Positions 1 through 5,839 of a stretch of 12,246 nt of DNA are shown in pieces; positions within the stretch are counted from its first letter, which is position 1; every line of letters starts with the position of its first letter. The notes below the pieces were generated by a model, which was not told where the DNA came from, ran no database searches, and worked only from the letters and a program-made list of their open reading frames with translations. The DNA is from a virus. Taxonomy: Duplodnaviria > Heunggongvirae > Uroviricota > Caudoviricetes. The translations under genes and the position numbers were made by a program. The DNA lies in the IMG/VR virus record IMGVR_UViG_2695420793_000011; one strand, given 5' to 3'.

Positions 1-220
1 AGAGACGCACGCGATAGCGTCCGTCCGGTACGATTTGCAGGTTGTCCAGTTCGGCAAGTTGTTGCTCTCCAAGCCAGACAGGTGGCACGTTATCGCCAGC
101 CAGTCGCCCGTCCTGTTCCTGCCACTGTTTCGCATGTGCCCACGCATCACTACCCGCAAAAATGATGACTTCCGTCATTTTGTCACGCGGCTGGTGTTTT
201 AAATTTGGCGCTTTTTTCAT
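1..220 (-). CDS. hypothetical protein, N-terminal 73 codons only; gene continues beyond window start
   Basis: Minus-strand ATG at 220-218 opens a frame reading MKKAPNLKHQPRDKMTEVIIFAGSDAWAHAKQWQEQDGRLAGDNVPPVWLGEQQLAELDNLQ... with E. coli-like codons and no stop before the window edge. The ATG overlaps the TGA stop of the upstream 99-aa ORF (ATGA), suggesting translational coupling. Not in the ORF track because it is open-ended. Function unknown. Confidence 0.45.
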   Translation of the reverse strand, partial: MKKAPNLKHQPRDKMTEVIIFAGSDAWAHAKQWQEQDGRLAGDNVPPVWLGEQQLAELDNLQIVPDGRYRVRL

Positions 221-516
221 TTCTGCTCTCTCCACGCGGCAATCATGTTTTTTAGTTCCTGTAGTTTTTTATCAACATCCATACATGACACATGGTTATT
301 TCTGGAAAGCGGGATTTCCCGCCTGAATCTGCTAATAAAGATCTCCACGTTCAGCGAACTAAGAAATGAATAGCCATCACGGATAAAATACACACGGTCA
401 AACATCAGTTCTTTTACCGTTACTCTGTTACCGTTCTTATCCAGATAAATAGCGCCGGGGATAATTTGGGGGTGTGCATAACCGCTGGCAGTCAAGCCAG
501 ATAAATACGTTCTCAT
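217..516 (-). CDS. hypothetical protein (99 aa), member of leftward small-gene operon
   Basis: ORF-track frame. It is in the same frame as the upstream 106-aa ORF, separated only by a TAA stop and two codons, and its stop overlaps the next start (ATGA). No family recognised. Confidence 0.5.
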   Translation of the reverse strand: MRTYLSGLTASGYAHPQIIPGAIYLDKNGNRVTVKELMFDRVYFIRDGYSFLSSLNVEIFISRFRREIPLSRNNHVSCMDVDKKLQELKNMIAAWREQK

Positions 517-522
517 GATTAT

Positions 523-843
523 TTATCCCCGATTTGAATCAGTATTCGCTTTCTTTATAGCATTTAATGCATCTGTGGCATTTTCAATGGTGCACCGTAA
601 CGAAATATCAAAATGTCCAAGCATTGCCAGTAACAAACCGATATTACCCATATCAATGCGCATGGCCTTTTCGTCATAGTCCTCATTTTCTGACGCATGC
701 CACATCAGGCTACCAATTGACGCAACAGCCATTGATATATTGTCAGTAGCCCCATCCGCAGCGGAATAAATCTTTTTAGCAATATCATGCTCACAGTTAA
801 AATGCGGATTAATCAGGTACTGGTAATTTGACATATCAGGCAT
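523..843 (-). CDS. hypothetical protein (106 aa), member of leftward small-gene operon
   Basis: ORF-track frame. Its ATG at 843-841 overlaps the stop of the upstream 67-aa frame (ATGCCTGA). No family recognised. Confidence 0.5.
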   Translation of the reverse strand: MPDMSNYQYLINPHFNCEHDIAKKIYSAADGATDNISMAVASIGSLMWHASENEDYDEKAMRIDMGNIGLLLAMLGHFDISLRCTIENATDALNAIKKANTDSNRG

Positions 844-1039
844 GGCACACCCCCTGACGAATACGGGCGGCGAATACCATCACGCAGCCAGCCGGGGATT
901 GCTGGCGTGCTTCCTGTTCGCTGGTGGCCACGATGTGAATCACGCGCGGTTGTGCGGTGCTCAGGGCGATAAAACGCCAGATGTATTTATTCAGGTTGTA
1001 CGAGTCCCGCCCTTGCGGGTGTATGGTATGATTTCTCAT
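836..1039 (-). CDS. hypothetical small protein (67 aa, MRNHTIHPQGRDSYNLNKYIWRF...), probable first gene of leftward operon
   Basis: This is the 3' portion of the 362-aa minus-strand track ORF. An internal ATG at 1039-1037 is preceded by GAGG about 8 nt upstream. The longer upstream extension runs through the AT-rich promoter region and antisense to better plus-strand genes. An alternative start at about 1132 is possible. Confidence 0.35.
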   Translation of the reverse strand: MRNHTIHPQGRDSYNLNKYIWRFIALSTAQPRVIHIVATSEQEARQQSPAGCVMVFAARIRQGVCHA

Positions 1040-1235
1040 AGCTGCCTCGATAATCTTGCTATCGTTGGTGGTTAGAAGCCCCGTTACTGCTCCTACAGTG
1101 CGGGGTTTCGTCGTTTCTGCACCTTGCATTAACAAGGTGTAAGTAACTTTATTTATAGGTGGCTTACATGTCAATGCTTTTATGTAAGACTTTTTATGTG
1201 TATATTGTCTTACACTTTCATTGAGAGGATTACAG
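1040..1235. promoter_or_regulatory. divergent promoter/operator region between the leftward small-gene operon and the rightward regulator-like genes
   Basis: AT-rich intergenic stretch with repeated TGTAAG(A/T)/CTTACA elements, including an inverted pair GTAAGAC...GTCTTAC around 1180-1215 and TTACATGTCAA at about 1164-1176. A short GC stem (CCCCG...CGGGG) at about 1080-1107 lies in the leftward leader. Confidence 0.45.
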
Positions 1236-1541
1236 ATGGCTACAGGTTCAAAAAACGCAAAATCACAATCACTGACAGCTCGGATCCCGCATGATGTTAT
1301 TGAAGGCATGGAATCCGTAAAACTGGACGGTGAAAGCAACGCCGGATTCATAGTAACCGCCATGCGCGGTGAAATCGCCCGCCGCCAGGCAGAAGGAAGC
1401 GGAGAAAACCTCCTGGTTTCTTCGCTCGATGCCCTAGCGCAGGTGGAAAAAATCGGAGTCAAAGCCGCCGAGGAGATCGGGCAACTCGTCACCGTCGCGC
1501 GTGAAGAACTCCAGCGACGCAAGGTCAAAGAGCAGGAATAG
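1236..1541 (+). CDS. small acidic protein, putative DNA-binding regulator of the island (family not confirmed)
   Basis: ATG at 1236 is preceded by GAGAGG at 1224-1229. Codon usage is E. coli-like and a strong intrinsic terminator follows the transcription unit. The N-terminal segment SLTARIPHDVIEGMESV is reminiscent of ribbon-helix-helix-type regulators, but this is an impression only. The track's longer start at 1221 lacks an SD. Confidence 0.5.
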   Translation: MATGSKNAKSQSLTARIPHDVIEGMESVKLDGESNAGFIVTAMRGEIARRQAEGSGENLLVSSLDALAQVEKIGVKAAEEIGQLVTVAREELQRRKVKEQE

Positions 1542-1598
1542 CCACTATCAGCGCCATAGTTTGAGGAACGCAGGCGCATTGCTTTACAGGACAGCACC

Positions 1599-1778
1599 AT
1601 GAGCGACACAGAATCAACCAAAACACCATCACCAACTCGTAAGAGACGACGCAAAAATATAGCGCATGAACATGAATCAGAAAGATTCGCACCTTGTTCG
1701 TTTGCTCTTGAGAAATTCCTTAAAGAGCACAGGAAAAAGCTCTCGTTGCAAACCTTGGAACGAACCAAATCTGACTGA
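1599..1778 (+). CDS. possible small basic protein (59 aa, MSDTESTKTPSPTRKRRRKNIAHEHESERF...)
   Basis: Found by manual translation; below the ORF-track size cutoff. It lies between the 1236-1541 gene and the plus-strand terminator. Weak SD and rare codons (AGA, CGA, AGG, ATA) make it uncertain. Confidence 0.25.
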   Translation: MSDTESTKTPSPTRKRRRKNIAHEHESERFAPCSFALEKFLKEHRKKLSLQTLERTKSD

Positions 1779-1845
1779 TCACATTGCCCACCAGCCGCAA
1801 ATGTGGCATTGTTGGCGATGCGTTCAAGTTTAGTGTGTATCCATT

Positions 1846-1877
1846 GGCGACCGCCCCCGGTCGCCTTTGTTTTATAT
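1846..1877 (+). terminator. intrinsic terminator for the rightward island transcription unit
   Basis: Perfect 8-bp GC-rich stem GGCGACCG / CGGTCGCC with CCCC loop (1846-1865), followed by TTTGTTTTATAT. Confidence 0.6.
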
Positions 1878-1892
1878 GTCATATGCTCCCCT

Positions 1893-2117
1893 TTACGCTG
1901 CCTTACCTGAATTAACGCGGTCACGGCTTTGCACCCAGTCCATAACTTCGGAAAGCAACCAGCCTACAGAACGCCCCCCAAGATTACGGCGAGACGGAAA
2001 GCCCCCTTTCTTCTCCAGTTCGTAGCGTGTAGTACGGCTGACGCCTGTTAACTTACGACATTCATCCTCACGAATTACGCGATCTGTTAGTGATTGAAAT
2101 TGTGTATTTTGATTCAT
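1893..2117 (-). CDS. alpA: AlpA-family phage/island transcriptional regulator (excisionase-like HTH)
   Basis: 74-aa translation with segment LTGVSRTTRYELEKKGGFPSRRNLGGRSVGWLLSEVMDWVQSR, matching the AlpA/Xis-type motif (GxSRsTiY...G.FP....lG.R.v.W...ev..W). Position downstream of a P4-type integrase is typical. Confidence 0.7.
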   Translation of the reverse strand: MNQNTQFQSLTDRVIREDECRKLTGVSRTTRYELEKKGGFPSRRNLGGRSVGWLLSEVMDWVQSRDRVNSGKAA

Positions 2118-2220
2118 AAAAACACCCTCGAACGTAACCGAACAAGGGCATCTTATTTACCATAGCAGTTGGTGCAATATTGGAAAAATAAACTTTATTC
2201 TAATTTATCGTTCTCCATGA

Positions 2221-3075
2221 TTAATTTTCATTAGATAAAATTTTTCTTATTTTTTCTAAAGAATCGCTGCGCATTATTTTTTCTAAGAAGGGTTTTACAG
2301 TCTGAACAATAGCAAAGGTGTCCTTTTCACCATCAGGATACAAAGATACGGCAAGCACCCCTAATGAAATTTTTCTATCTGTAGACAACTCCCAAGATAA
2401 TAAGTCAATTAATGGGATTATCTTATAATCAATAATTTTACGTCGTATGCTCTCCCAACTTCCTGCAATTGGTTTGTCTGGCTCAACAATTGAAAGTTCA
2501 CTACGCCATTTTGGTAATAGTTTTGTAAACGCTTCAATCAACTCATCATCTCTGTTATGTAGTAAGTCAACAGAAACAAGCATATTATCTAATGTATCAG
2601 AAAGGAGATTCACTGGTTCACGCATCACAGCCCAAAACATCCCATTATCTTCTGATATTAAACTTCCAACCATCTCATTATCTATGATGATTGGTTTATC
2701 CTTCCAATATCCTCTTTCCGCAGTCAGTTTATTAATCATTGATATATCAAACCTTGTTACAGGTTTAATTCCATCATCATAACTTAGCTCAATTAACTTC
2801 GGTTGCACTTTATGGTCATATTCTTTTTGTTTATCACAAAACCAATCGTCTTCTTTCAGCTCTCCAAATGGATCCCCGTAATTATTATGCAACGGGTATT
2901 CAGCACCAAACATAAATCCATATTCAGGCATCTCAGAATGTTTCATTGTTAAATCATCTTGTCGCCAATATAATTGGCGAAATAGATCTTTATCCGACAA
3001 GTTTTCTAGGCAATCATATTTGCCTAAATCAAATGACTTTGGTAAATCTTTTTTACTATTTACTTTTTTCGTCAT
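2221..3075 (-). CDS. hypothetical cytoplasmic protein (284 aa), AT-rich cargo gene between integrase and alpA; function unknown
   Basis: Long uninterrupted frame in visibly AT-rich DNA. Its ATG at 3075-3073 overlaps the integrase TGA stop at 3074-3072 (ATGA). No transmembrane segment or catalytic motif recognised by eye. Confidence 0.65.
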   Translation of the reverse strand: MTKKVNSKKDLPKSFDLGKYDCLENLSDKDLFRQLYWRQDDLTMKHSEMPEYGFMFGAEYPLHNNYGDPFGELKEDDWFCDKQKEYDHKVQPKLIELSYDDGIKPVTRFDISMINKLTAERGYWKDKPIIIDNEMVGSLISEDNGMFWAVMREPVNLLSDTLDNMLVSVDLLHNRDDELIEAFTKLLPKWRSELSIVEPDKPIAGSWESIRRKIIDYKIIPLIDLLSWELSTDRKISLGVLAVSLYPDGEKDTFAIVQTVKPFLEKIMRSDSLEKIRKILSNEN

Positions 3076-4292
3076 TGTATCCCTCTCAATATCACAATAT
3101 TTTCATTATATCCTGCAATCATATCAAGACGCTCAACCCATAGATTCAGTGCGTCCCGTTTCGCCTGCAAATAGCGTGAATGGTTATAGGTTTTTTGCTG
3201 ACCTGGCATCTGATGCGCTGTGATGTGCTCCACGATATGCGGATCGACACCTAAATCATTCAGCATAGTTGTAAACGTGTGTCGGAAATCATGCAGCGTC
3301 CAGTGTTCCTGCTTAAGCCGCTTATGCGCATTTCGTCCATATTGCGCCACCGTGGTATCTTTTTTCAGTTCGCCGAGTAATAACCCAGTGTGTGCGTTTT
3401 GCTCCACCAGCTTCTGAATGAACGGCAAAATACCATCAGGAATAGGTCGGAATATTGTTACCTTCGTTTTGCTGTGCTCTTTTGGCACTGTCCACAACAT
3501 TTCTTTCAGGTCCCATTCTTTGATCTCTGAAAGTCTGATCTCTGCCGTTCTGCACCCGAACACAATTAACAAGCGCATTAACGCACTGTAATAGGGAGCG
3601 AACACATCACCATCAATAGCGCGTAGAATTTCTTTTAGTTCGCTGTTGCTGTGCACTCTCTCGCGGATTTCTGCTCTCTTACCCACATCAGTAACGATCA
3701 AATCGTCCAGGGCGTTGCTAAACGCGTAGCGCCGCCTGCGGCAAAACTTTAGCGCCTGTTTGCATGTCTGCATGACATGGCCCGCTGCTACTGGTGCTTT
3801 TTTTCGTACGCGGTCAAAACATGCGATCCACTGCCTTGTATCACACTTATCAAGGGGAATTGCCCCAATATGGCAAATGATGTGCTTATCCATACGCTGC
3901 ACCAGCTTTATGTAATCTTTGCGGTTATCCTTCGCGTATTCCTCCAGCCAGTAGTTAATCGCTTCCTTCACCGTAACGGGTTTTAGTGCTTCCTGTACTG
4001 TGGCGCACAACTCATAACGGGGGTTTTTACCCTCAGCCAGCCATGCCCGGCACAGTGTGCGTTTTTCCCTTGCGGCTTTCAGCGACAATTCAGGGTAAGC
4101 CCCCAGCTTTAACCGCTCTGCGGCAACCTCACGGCCTCCCGTTCGGTACCGGAAATACCAGGTTAATTTGCCGCCCTTTGAGTGTTTAATCTCCAGCCCG
4201 CCCCCGTCGGAGTAAAAACGCTCTTTTTCTGCCTGGACAGCCGCCAATTTTTTTAACGTCGAATCGCTCAGTTTGTTTAGTGCTTTTCCCAC
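3072..4292 (-). CDS. int: P4-type tyrosine site-specific integrase
   Basis: 406 aa. The N-terminal arm-binding-type region (DGGGLEIKHSKGGKLTWYFRYRTGGREVAAERLKLGAYPELSLKAAREKR) resembles P4/CP4-57 integrases. The C-terminus has the HxxR box (HDFRHTF) and a candidate catalytic Tyr (KTYNHSRY). GTG start at 4292 with AGAGGA about 9 nt upstream. Confidence 0.85.
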   Translation of the reverse strand: MGKALNKLSDSTLKKLAAVQAEKERFYSDGGGLEIKHSKGGKLTWYFRYRTGGREVAAERLKLGAYPELSLKAAREKRTLCRAWLAEGKNPRYELCATVQEALKPVTVKEAINYWLEEYAKDNRKDYIKLVQRMDKHIICHIGAIPLDKCDTRQWIACFDRVRKKAPVAAGHVMQTCKQALKFCRRRRYAFSNALDDLIVTDVGKRAEIRERVHSNSELKEILRAIDGDVFAPYYSALMRLLIVFGCRTAEIRLSEIKEWDLKEMLWTVPKEHSKTKVTIFRPIPDGILPFIQKLVEQNAHTGLLLGELKKDTTVAQYGRNAHKRLKQEHWTLHDFRHTFTTMLNDLGVDPHIVEHITAHQMPGQQKTYNHSRYLQAKRDALNLWVERLDMIAGYNENIVILRGIQ

Positions 4293-4328
4293 TATCAGAT
4301 CCTCTTTTCAGTCCTCCAGCCTCAAAAA

Positions 4329-4352
4329 ACTGACCACACAACTGACCACACA
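4329..4352. repeat. tandem direct repeat (A)CTGACCACACA x2 immediately upstream of int
   Basis: Two 11-bp units CTGACCACACA at 4330-4340 and 4342-4352, 12-bp period. Followed at 4369-4386 by CGAACAAC x2 with 10-bp period, within an ACAA-rich tract. Confidence 0.5.
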
Positions 4353-4480
4353 TTTTGTTGAAGCTCTACGAACAACGACGAACAACAACAAACAAGAAAA
4401 CAGGATAATTTATTGTTTATCAAATACATACATAAACAACCACAAGCAACCCCGAACCACAAAAAACACTAAATGAGAAA

Positions 4481-4540
4481 ATACGGGTATTTCTCAGCCT
4501 TCACGCAGAAGGGCACCCCGAGTCGTTTGGTTGCGATGAT
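4481..4540 (-). ncRNA. 5' portion of the thiM TPP (thiamine pyrophosphate) riboswitch aptamer, truncated at the island junction
   Basis: The minus strand reads AACCAAACGACTCGGGGTGCCCTTCTGCGTGAAGGCTGAGAAATACCCGTAT, matching from memory the 5' half of the E. coli thiM leader including the conserved CUGAGA element. After ACCCGUAU the expected CACCUGAUCUGGAUAAUGCCAGCG is replaced by unrelated sequence running into int. Confidence 0.65.
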
Positions 4541-4621
4541 AAATCGCAGAGGAGGATGGTAATGTCCAGCGCACGCGTTGTAAACGAGGAAAAACGGCAG
4601 TTTTACAATCGCGTTAATAAA

Positions 4622-5014: not shown

Positions 5015-5839
5015 ATGACCGAATTTACAACTCTTCTTCAGCAAGGAAACGCCTGGTTCTTCATCCCCAGCGCCATCTTACTTGGTGCGCTTCATGGCCT
5101 GGAACCAGGGCACTCAAAAACGATGATGGCGGCGTTTATCATCGCCATCAAAGGCACCATTAAACAGGCGGTGATGCTCGGACTGGCAGCAACTATTTCG
5201 CATACCGCAGTGGTCTGGTTAATTGCCTTTGGCGGGATGGTGATCAGCAAGCGCTTTACTGCTCAATCAGCAGAACCGTGGCTCCAGCTGATTTCCGCAG
5301 TGATCATTATTGGCACCGCGTTCTGGATGTTCTGGCGTACCTGGCGCGGCGAACGCAACTGGCTGGAGAATATGCACGAGTATGATCATGAACATCATCA
5401 CCACGATCACGAAGATCACCACGACCATGGACATCATCACCATCACGAACATGGCGAGTATCAGGATGCCCATGCACGAGCCCATGCCAATGATATTAAA
5501 CGACGCTTTGATGGTAGAGAGGTCACCAACTGGCAAATTTTGTTATTTGGCTTAACAGGTGGTCTTATCCCCTGTCCGGCAGCAATTACCGTGCTGTTGA
5601 TTTGCATTCAGTTGAAAGCCCTGACACTGGGCGCAACACTGGTCGTCAGTTTCAGCATTGGCCTGGCGTTAACGCTTGTCACCGTAGGCGTTGGCGCAGC
5701 AATCAGCGTTCAGCAGGTCGCAAAACGCTGGAGCGGATTTAACACTCTCGCTAAACGCGCCCCCTATTTTTCCAGTCTGTTGATTGGCTTAGTCGGTGTG
5801 TATATGGGCGTACATGGCTTCATGGGCATAATGCGATAA
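5015..5839 (+). CDS. rcnA: RcnA nickel/cobalt efflux transporter with His-rich cytoplasmic loop
   Basis: 274-aa membrane protein recognised as RcnA. It has the HGLEPGHSKT motif and a His/Asp/Glu-rich loop (EYDHEHHHHDHEDHHDHGHHHHHEHGEY) encoded at about 5390-5460. Confidence 0.9.
   Translation: MTEFTTLLQQGNAWFFIPSAILLGALHGLEPGHSKTMMAAFIIAIKGTIKQAVMLGLAATISHTAVVWLIAFGGMVISKRFTAQSAEPWLQLISAVIIIGTAFWMFWRTWRGERNWLENMHEYDHEHHHHDHEDHHDHGHHHHHEHGEYQDAHARAHANDIKRRFDGREVTNWQILLFGLTGGLIPCPAAITVLLICIQLKALTLGATLVVSFSIGLALTLVTVGVGAAISVQQVAKRWSGFNTLAKRAPYFSSLLIGLVGVYMGVHGFMGIMR

Follow-up and report, generated by a model that had tools for sequence, protein, structure and literature searches.

We propose that the two short tandem repeats lying between the integrase gene and the chromosomal junction of this DNA probably form the P arm, i.e., the half nearer to int, in the attachment-site arm module of a PICI-type satellite island resembling P4, which sits in the leader of the host gene thiM. 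The original prediction had read them as possible arm-type sites of the integrase. This reading appears well supported by a copy of the repeats at the far end of the island, by their counterparts in related islands, by an Arm-DNA-bind_3 domain in the integrase and by the annotation of equivalent arm repeats in phage P4.

The window, i.e., the whole stretch of 12,246 nucleotides analysed here, has two parts. Positions 1-4480 represent the right-hand end (4.5 kb) of a mobile island; besides int, this part carries genes for a DUF6387 protein, an AlpA-family protein, an Icd-like protein and a DUF4222 protein as well as the end of a primase gene. From position 4481 onward follows E. coli chromosome with rcnR, rcnA, rcnB and the fimbrial genes yehABCD. 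The features referred to below are the following.

1893..2117, minus strand: small helix-turn-helix protein of the AlpA/Vis family, 74 aa, a candidate recombination directionality factor (RDF; Pfam Phage_AlpA, 4.8e-16)
3072..4292, minus strand: int, P4-type tyrosine integrase, 406 aa, GTG start, with an N-terminal domain of the arm-binding type (ORF and Pfam)
4326..4395, plus strand: 70-bp arm block with a direct-repeat copy at the far (thiM-proximal) island end (blastn and alignment)
4329..4352, plus strand: P-arm doubled motif, two 12-bp units ACTGACCACACA, candidate Int arm-type half-sites
4368..4395, plus strand: 10-bp-period repeat, two copies of CGAACAAC and a degenerate third one, matching a family-wide motif of approximately TAAAC..GAACAA
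4406..4430, no strand assigned: two overlapping matches resembling the IHF consensus, one mismatch each, weakly suggestive
4481..4494, plus strand: att core or identity block ATACGGGTATTTCT, 14 bp, common to both island ends and the empty site
4481..4530, minus strand: 5' half of the host thiM TPP riboswitch aptamer, severed by the island (Rfam)
4556..4584, minus strand: sigma-70-like site TTTACA-17-TACCAT, presumably the host thiM promoter (consensus match only)

An identical stretch is found in the complete genome NZ_CP018948 (L001), where the island comprises approximately 10.6 kb between thiM and rcnR and encodes a primase and a protease/capsid fusion protein; because of these two genes, we regard it as a P4-like or PICI-type phage satellite. 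It is carried by 72-76 out of 5426 complete E. coli genomes. The islands of L001, L003, L004, L005 and L006 have the int/arm/core module in common and differ in their cargo. Some carry the P4-like protease-capsid fusion together with DUF1441, others have head genes of the HK97 type, either accompanied by terminase or lacking it, and thereby resemble capsid-forming PICIs. Such different cargo on one int/att module indicates modular exchange. On the chromosomal side, an IS1 InsB-like ORF (11853-12230, minus strand) abuts a shortened yehE ORF (11612-11851) in the region 11612-12230; in L001, yehE is intact and no IS1 is present there, and the window thus stems from a different strain. A further tandem repeat, imperfect and of 9/18 bp, lies within rcnA (5387-5452); it is a coding repeat of the ordinary type and specifies the histidine-rich loop of this efflux protein for nickel and cobalt.

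The junction between island and chromosome lies at position 4481, since island-free E. coli genomes, of which there are thousands, match the window from this position onward only. When the island ends of L001 are compared with the empty site in L002, the block ATACGGGTATTTCT is found at the junction of the window and again next to thiM, and the crossover in all likelihood falls within these 14 bp. In L006 (NZ_CP182331), an identical integrase and arm are located next to yphG (14172-14200) with the junction ATACGGGTtgTTCT, which looks like a secondary attB with two core positions different; this genome has four arm copies, i.e., two islands. The secondary-site junction fits active site-specific recombination within the ATACGGGTATTTCT block. 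A tRNA gene as target was ruled out, as there is none in the window and the target is the thiM leader.

More precisely, the island is located inside the TPP riboswitch aptamer of thiM. The intact aptamer of the empty site (L002, 2454-2550) scores 71.2 bits with the Rfam TPP model, while the separated halves reach 20.6 bits (5' half in the window) and 33.3 bits (3' half next to thiM; L001, 10826-10960), both below the gathering threshold of 54.3 bits. The island supplies no replacement for the 5' half, and thiMD is thus left with half a riboswitch. In the literature searched, we found no report of thiM or of a riboswitch as an integration site, and the split thiM riboswitch is a more unusual observation than the arm repeats.

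The repeats themselves can be read directly from the sequence: CTGACCACACA at 4330-4340 and 4342-4352 with a period of 12 bp, and CGAACAAC at 4369-4376 and 4379-4386 with a period of 10 bp. Tandem Repeats Finder reports the first array at 4328-4352 (period 12, 2.1 copies, 100% match) and the second at 4368-4395 (period 10, 2.8 copies, 88%). In 5000 dinucleotide-preserving shuffles of the 188-bp spacer between int and core, a self-match run of at least 13 at any period from 8 to 14, the level of the 12-bp pair, occurred once, a period-10 run of at least 9, the level of the 10-bp pair, occurred 17 times, and both runs together never. The 12-bp pair is also the sole exact tandem run of at least 11 (periods 8-14) in the whole 12.2-kb window. 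Both tandem repeats are hence real and beyond chance, at the two periods and the positions originally predicted, and their predicted location between the junction and the int start is borne out by the start codon at 4292 and by the junction as defined against island-free genomes. The int start is 37 bp downstream of the 12-bp pair, and the start of the core is approximately 152 bp away on the other side. As for the IHF-like matches between the arm block and the core, 23 of this kind are observed across the window versus 19 expected, which is not above chance; an ATCAA motif at a similar offset recurs in relatives.

The far island end is not part of the window, and its sequence was taken from genomes that carry this island. 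Approximately 80 bp inside the second core copy, the far end of L001 reads ATGACCACACAACTGACCACACATTTCGTTGAAGCCCTACGAACAACGACGAACAATAACAAACAA. This block is a copy of window positions 4326-4395 in the same orientation and includes both tandem repeats. Its 12-bp pair, the P' pair, is found at 10953-10976, approximately 80 bp after the core copy, and the situation in L003 and L005 is alike. These two islands share the int/att module of L001, one of them with different cargo. Aligned with each other by blastn, the two arms are 94% identical over 70 bp in L001 (E 6e-28), 99% in L003 and 87% in L005. The 10-mer CTGACCACAC, with up to one mismatch allowed, occurs at the two arms in each of these 28-42-kb loci; elsewhere in them there is one further match, with one mismatch, in chromosomal DNA outside the island. 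The repeat units are hence present near the other island end, where the original prediction had proposed to look for them, co-oriented and within the 70-bp block.

Related islands were collected in two rounds. In the first round, integrase homologues with 50-74% identity were traced to their contigs, which gave 11 relatives. In all 11, int is preceded at a distance of 14-60 bp by a pair with a 12-bp period; the unit sequences are lineage-specific, and at least six different ones occur. Units of named loci are as follows.

L007 (Salmonella, same riboswitch site as the window): CTGACCACAC
L008 (Salmonella, same change in both copies): CTGACCTCAC
L009-L011, L013 and L014 (abgR/smrA, phoQ/roxA, prophage site and others): TTAACTACAC
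L015 and L016 (fis site): CTGACTGCAC / CTGACTACAC
L012 (excised 16.5-kb capsid-forming element deposited as a phage): TGTTTATACA

Conservation in the P-arm alignment of the E. coli and Salmonella relatives, the core aside, is highest in the doubled motif. This motif is invariant except for a concerted A-to-T exchange in L008, which affects the same position of both copies (CTGACCACACA in L007 versus CTGACCTCACA in L008). The second round was a wider scan with one genome per species and yielded 80 loci, 36 of them with at least 40% integrase identity, from other genera. A 12-bp tandem with at least 11 of 12 positions matching is located within 80 bp of int in 22 of these 36 relatives, versus 5 of 7090 random windows of the same loci. 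New units were found in Serratia, Klebsiella, Xenorhabdus, Shewanella, Vibrio and Photobacterium, most of them with a (T)ACAC core. Upstream of int in L044 (Shewanella sairae), both doubled motifs occur 234 bp apart on one contig; this attP-like arrangement points to an element in excised or tandem form. In L046, ATGTACCCCCAT occurs four times in tandem, not twice. Many lineages and also P4 have a similar 10-bp-spaced GAAC/GGAC motif at a matching distance from the 12-bp pair; this motif (approximately TAAAC....GAACAA) varies less from lineage to lineage than do the 12-bp units. Absence of the units from related islands had been named as a refutation of the arm-site reading; what we find is that the 12-bp doubled unit is kept at the same place, with a lineage-specific sequence.

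Wherever both island ends or an intact attP can be read, there is exactly one further co-oriented pair. From pair start to pair start, the distance in the reconstructed or actual attP, the latter in case of the excised element L012, is 232-234 bp in 11 of 13 cases, spanning at least seven attB sites and eight unit sequences; the island of the window has 232 bp. Typically, 149-152 bp separate the P pair from the identity block and 80-84 bp the block from the P' pair. The two exceptions are L050 with 242 bp and L056 with a sum of 142, the latter based on an 8-bp core match whose assignment is probably spurious. Between the pairs, the sequence is otherwise poorly conserved. Such constancy of spacing would be expected from a folded nucleoprotein complex.

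These data bear on the notion that the repeats have no function at all and result from slippage in an A/C-rich spacer, or are left over from an ancient duplication or tandem insertion by which one arm was copied to the other end. The tract has a biased composition, rich in ACAA, and the whole 70-bp block is duplicated in the island, for which a single duplication could account. Against this, the shuffles, which preserve dinucleotide composition, rarely reproduce the repeats; in L010, identity between the arms is confined to the 26-bp doubled motif, the remainder of the block having diverged; and independent lineages with unrelated units show the same geometry of a pair of pairs. We therefore give this explanation hardly any credence.

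Under the preferred reading as integrase arm sites, the N-terminal domain of Int is the expected partner of the 12-bp units. The integrase matches Arm-DNA-bind_3 (PF13356; 1.9e-17, residues 8-94) and Phage_integrase (8e-17); the former is the only N-terminal Pfam match at E <=0.01, and there is no lambda-type Int N-terminal domain. The N-domain is homologous to the structures 3jtz and 3rmp (E 1.8e-8) and 3ju0 (E 5e-6) in the PDB. A natural mosaic is provided by the integrases of L007 and L008 (10001-11227), which are 94% identical after residue 95, approximately 70% identical in the N-domain, and associated with different units. The converse holds for the window and L007, where the N-domains are 88% and the C-terminal parts 71% identical and the units are the same. 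Other discordant pairs behave likewise: conserved N-domains go with matching units, conserved C-terminal parts with different ones. The partial rank correlation of the unit is 0.36 with the N-domain given the C-terminal part and 0.12 with the C-terminal part given the N-domain. Counter to this trend, L014 and L009 have the same unit despite an N-domain identity of just 66%. The correlation is confounded by physical linkage and shared ancestry, as the N-terminal codons are approximately 40 bp away from the P-arm pair and, once the element is circular, no more than approximately 270 bp from the P' pair. The closer correspondence of the units to the N-domain than to the catalytic part is hence a supportive observation only. 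A K/R difference in an N-domain beta-strand (EIKHS versus SVRHS/SARVS) tracks CTGAC versus TTAAC units, which is anecdotal since the lineages are not independent.

A different reader is conceivable. The repeats, or at least the 10-bp pair CGAACAAC, might be sites of an AlpA/Vis-type excisionase rather than Int arm sites. The AlpA-family gene is located downstream of int with the DUF6387 gene in between, and its product aligns with P4 Vis at 39% identity. According to a published account, RDF sites are typically direct repeats one helical turn apart (PMC7498355), which makes AlpA a reasonable candidate reader of the 10-bp repeat, and AlpA has been proposed among the readers of a doubled motif (PMC10111431). 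The GAAC-type 10-bp motif and the helix-turn-helix region of AlpA are both conserved across lineages, and conservation of the 10-bp repeat where the 12-bp units differ fits a reader other than the variable arm domain. Furthermore, L008 and L014, which have the most similar AlpA proteins of any cross-lineage pair (73%), resemble each other in the segment after the 12-bp pair, so that AlpA similarity might follow this downstream segment, judging from few cases. As a determinant of the 12-bp unit, however, AlpA similarity was rejected: L014 and L009 share the unit at 53% AlpA identity, and L014 and L008 have different units at 73%. In addition, a tetramer of arm domains would be matched by the four half-sites, which the two arms carry at a fixed distance of 232-234 bp, and the P4 record names the equivalent units arm repeats. 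For the repeats taken together, an excisionase role in place of arm binding is thus unlikely; the 10-bp repeat by itself could be either a further Int site or an AlpA/RDF site.

Arm binding by Int, which we favour, leaves room for a role of the repeats in int expression. The original prediction had offered regulatory sites as the alternative to arm sites. A regulatory role does stand, as a complement to arm binding like that in P4 and KplE1; its exclusiveness does not. In its strict form, this alternative holds that the repeats are merely parts of an operator or promoter controlling int and have no recombination role. They are positioned 37-100 bp upstream of the int start, the integrases of P4 and KplE1 are autoregulated through such a region, and GAACAA reads TTGTTC on the int-sense strand, weakly resembling a -35 element. 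Yet the same block with its pair is also present at the far end, at a distance of approximately 10 kb from int, and no int gene is located there that it could regulate; moreover, the geometry relative to the core is conserved to approximately 1 bp across lineages. A promoter scan, whose only match is the thiM-promoter-like site at 4556-4584, found no sigma-70-like site between core and int, nor one in the P' arm ahead of thiM; an operator in the spacer would thus lack a mapped promoter to act on. We consider the strict form very improbable.

As a function added to arm binding, Int occupancy of the 12-bp pair probably also regulates int, by analogy with two characterized cases. In P4, Int and Vis repress Pint, as stated in PMC7286903 citing Piazzolla et al. 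2006, and in KplE1 the promoter of intS, which the arm and RDF sites overlap, is under negative autoregulation (PMC2951348). Given the distance of the 12-bp pair from the int start codon, its occupancy would be expected to damp int transcription. Furthermore, the promoter-like site of thiM is now directed towards int, across the truncated riboswitch and the arm repeats, and could provide int transcription specific to the integrated state.

Putting these elements together, a heterobivalent Int would act with its catalytic and core-binding domains at the 14-bp core 4481-4494, while its N-terminal Arm-DNA-bind_3 domains would dock on the 12-bp units. The two units described here and the two on the other arm would offer four half-sites to an Int tetramer. 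The pair spacing of 232-234 bp, probably helped by bending of the DNA between arm and core, would let the arms fold back on the core to form an intasome for integration, and the same assembly together with the AlpA-type directionality factor would carry out excision. Int bound to the pair 37 bp upstream of the int start may at the same time dampen transcription into its own gene as a negative autoregulation. We infer which protein binds which repeat, and likewise the autoregulation.

The consequences are graded. For the window, the nature of the spacer between int and the junction is settled in so far as it most likely forms an attachment-site arm and does not just hold a stray repeat. The doubled motif with its 12-bp period, which had been reported to be confined to helper-embedded (HE-) PICIs, may well be a general feature of P4/PICI-type integrases, as its distribution among the relatives suggests; a general motif with near-invariant spacing would help to define island ends and attP sites automatically, and orthogonal pairs of integrase and arm are possible tools for genome engineering. 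As a tentative extension, which we hold to be possible rather than likely, the whole P4/PICI clade would use an "arm code" made up of a lineage-specific 12-bp unit, the 232-234-bp spacing and a swappable N-domain, in which recombination within int re-pairs arm and core specificity (compare L007 and L008), combined with a gating by the arm of thiM read-through across the split riboswitch into int. If true, this gating would place int under a control specific to the integrated state.

Among known systems, the arm sites of lambda Int (P1, P2, P'1-3) share the general logic, i.e., a heterobivalent integrase bridging arm and core, arms on both sides of the core, and bending and RDF proteins setting directionality (established knowledge; PMC2951348). 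The N-domain family and the number, spacing and orientation of the sites are all different, and the likeness is one of mechanism, not membership. The known mechanism of heterobivalent tyrosine integrases is left unchanged by our findings. The HPI/CP4-like arm-binding domains (PDB 3jtz, 3rmp, 3ju0) resemble the Int studied here in the protein domain only; they stem from different islands with different arm sequences. With KplE1 IntS, the island shares that int abuts att. In KplE1, the arm and RDF sites consequently overlap the int promoter region, which results in negative autoregulation by Int and RDF (PMC2951348). This was demonstrated there by experiment with a mapped promoter, whereas for our island it is a prediction from the sequence; integrase lineage and site sequences differ as well.

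For HE-PICIs, Tommasini, Mageeney and Williams (2023) described a doubled motif tgTGTATTGCantgTGTATTGCa with a 12-bp period in the attPs, present in two co-oriented copies 81 and 132 bp from the attP centre, for which the four arm domains of an Int tetramer or AlpA were proposed as reader, and which was reported absent from other PICIs including fis PICIs (PMC10111431). The 12-bp doubling, the two co-oriented copies placed asymmetrically about the crossover, the integrase clade and the int-alpA module all agree with our island. Its distances of approximately 80 bp from core start to P' pair and approximately 134 bp from P pair end to core centre are close to 81 and 132 bp, bearing in mind that the measuring convention of that paper may differ. 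The HE-PICI doubled core TGTATTGC is not found in the window; the unit is CTGACCACAC instead, of which only ACAC resembles the reverse complement GCAATACAca. HE-PICIs are integrated in a late gene of the helper prophage, our island between thiM and rcnR. One relative (L054) carries the HE-PICI motif itself, as GCAATACACA, and equivalent doubled units of different sequence with the same geometry occur in the fis, thiM, abgR/smrA and phoQ/roxA islands.

In phage P4, attP arm sequence repeats were reportedly described by Pierson and Kahn in 1987 (cited via PMC7286903). The P4 record (NC_001609) lists a 12-bp "attP arm sequence repeat" as tandem pairs at 3942-3965 and 4151-4174 on either side of the core (4078-4097); the int start is at 3926, and the first pair lies 16 bp from it. 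As in our island, the int gene borders on att and points away from it, a 12-bp tandem pair is located just upstream of int and a second co-oriented pair beyond the core, and the first pair is followed by a 10-bp-period motif of the GGAC/GAAC type, which in P4 reads ACGGACAACC TCGGAAGACG. An RDF of the AlpA/Vis type and an Int with Arm-DNA-bind_3 N-domain are likewise common to both. The differences concern the unit (ATGCCCCCAA in P4 versus CTGACCACAC), the pair-to-pair spacing (209 versus 232 bp), the integrases, which are only 22% identical, and the target, tRNA-Leu in P4 versus the thiM riboswitch here; P4 furthermore has extra single arm copies at and inside int, none of which is seen in our island. 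Judged from the sequence, the four hallmarks of P4-type attP arm repeats, namely the N-domain, the pair between int and core, the co-oriented P' pair and the common core, are all present. The arm repeats described here are thus most likely an ordinary feature, one for which phage P4 and related islands provide known examples.
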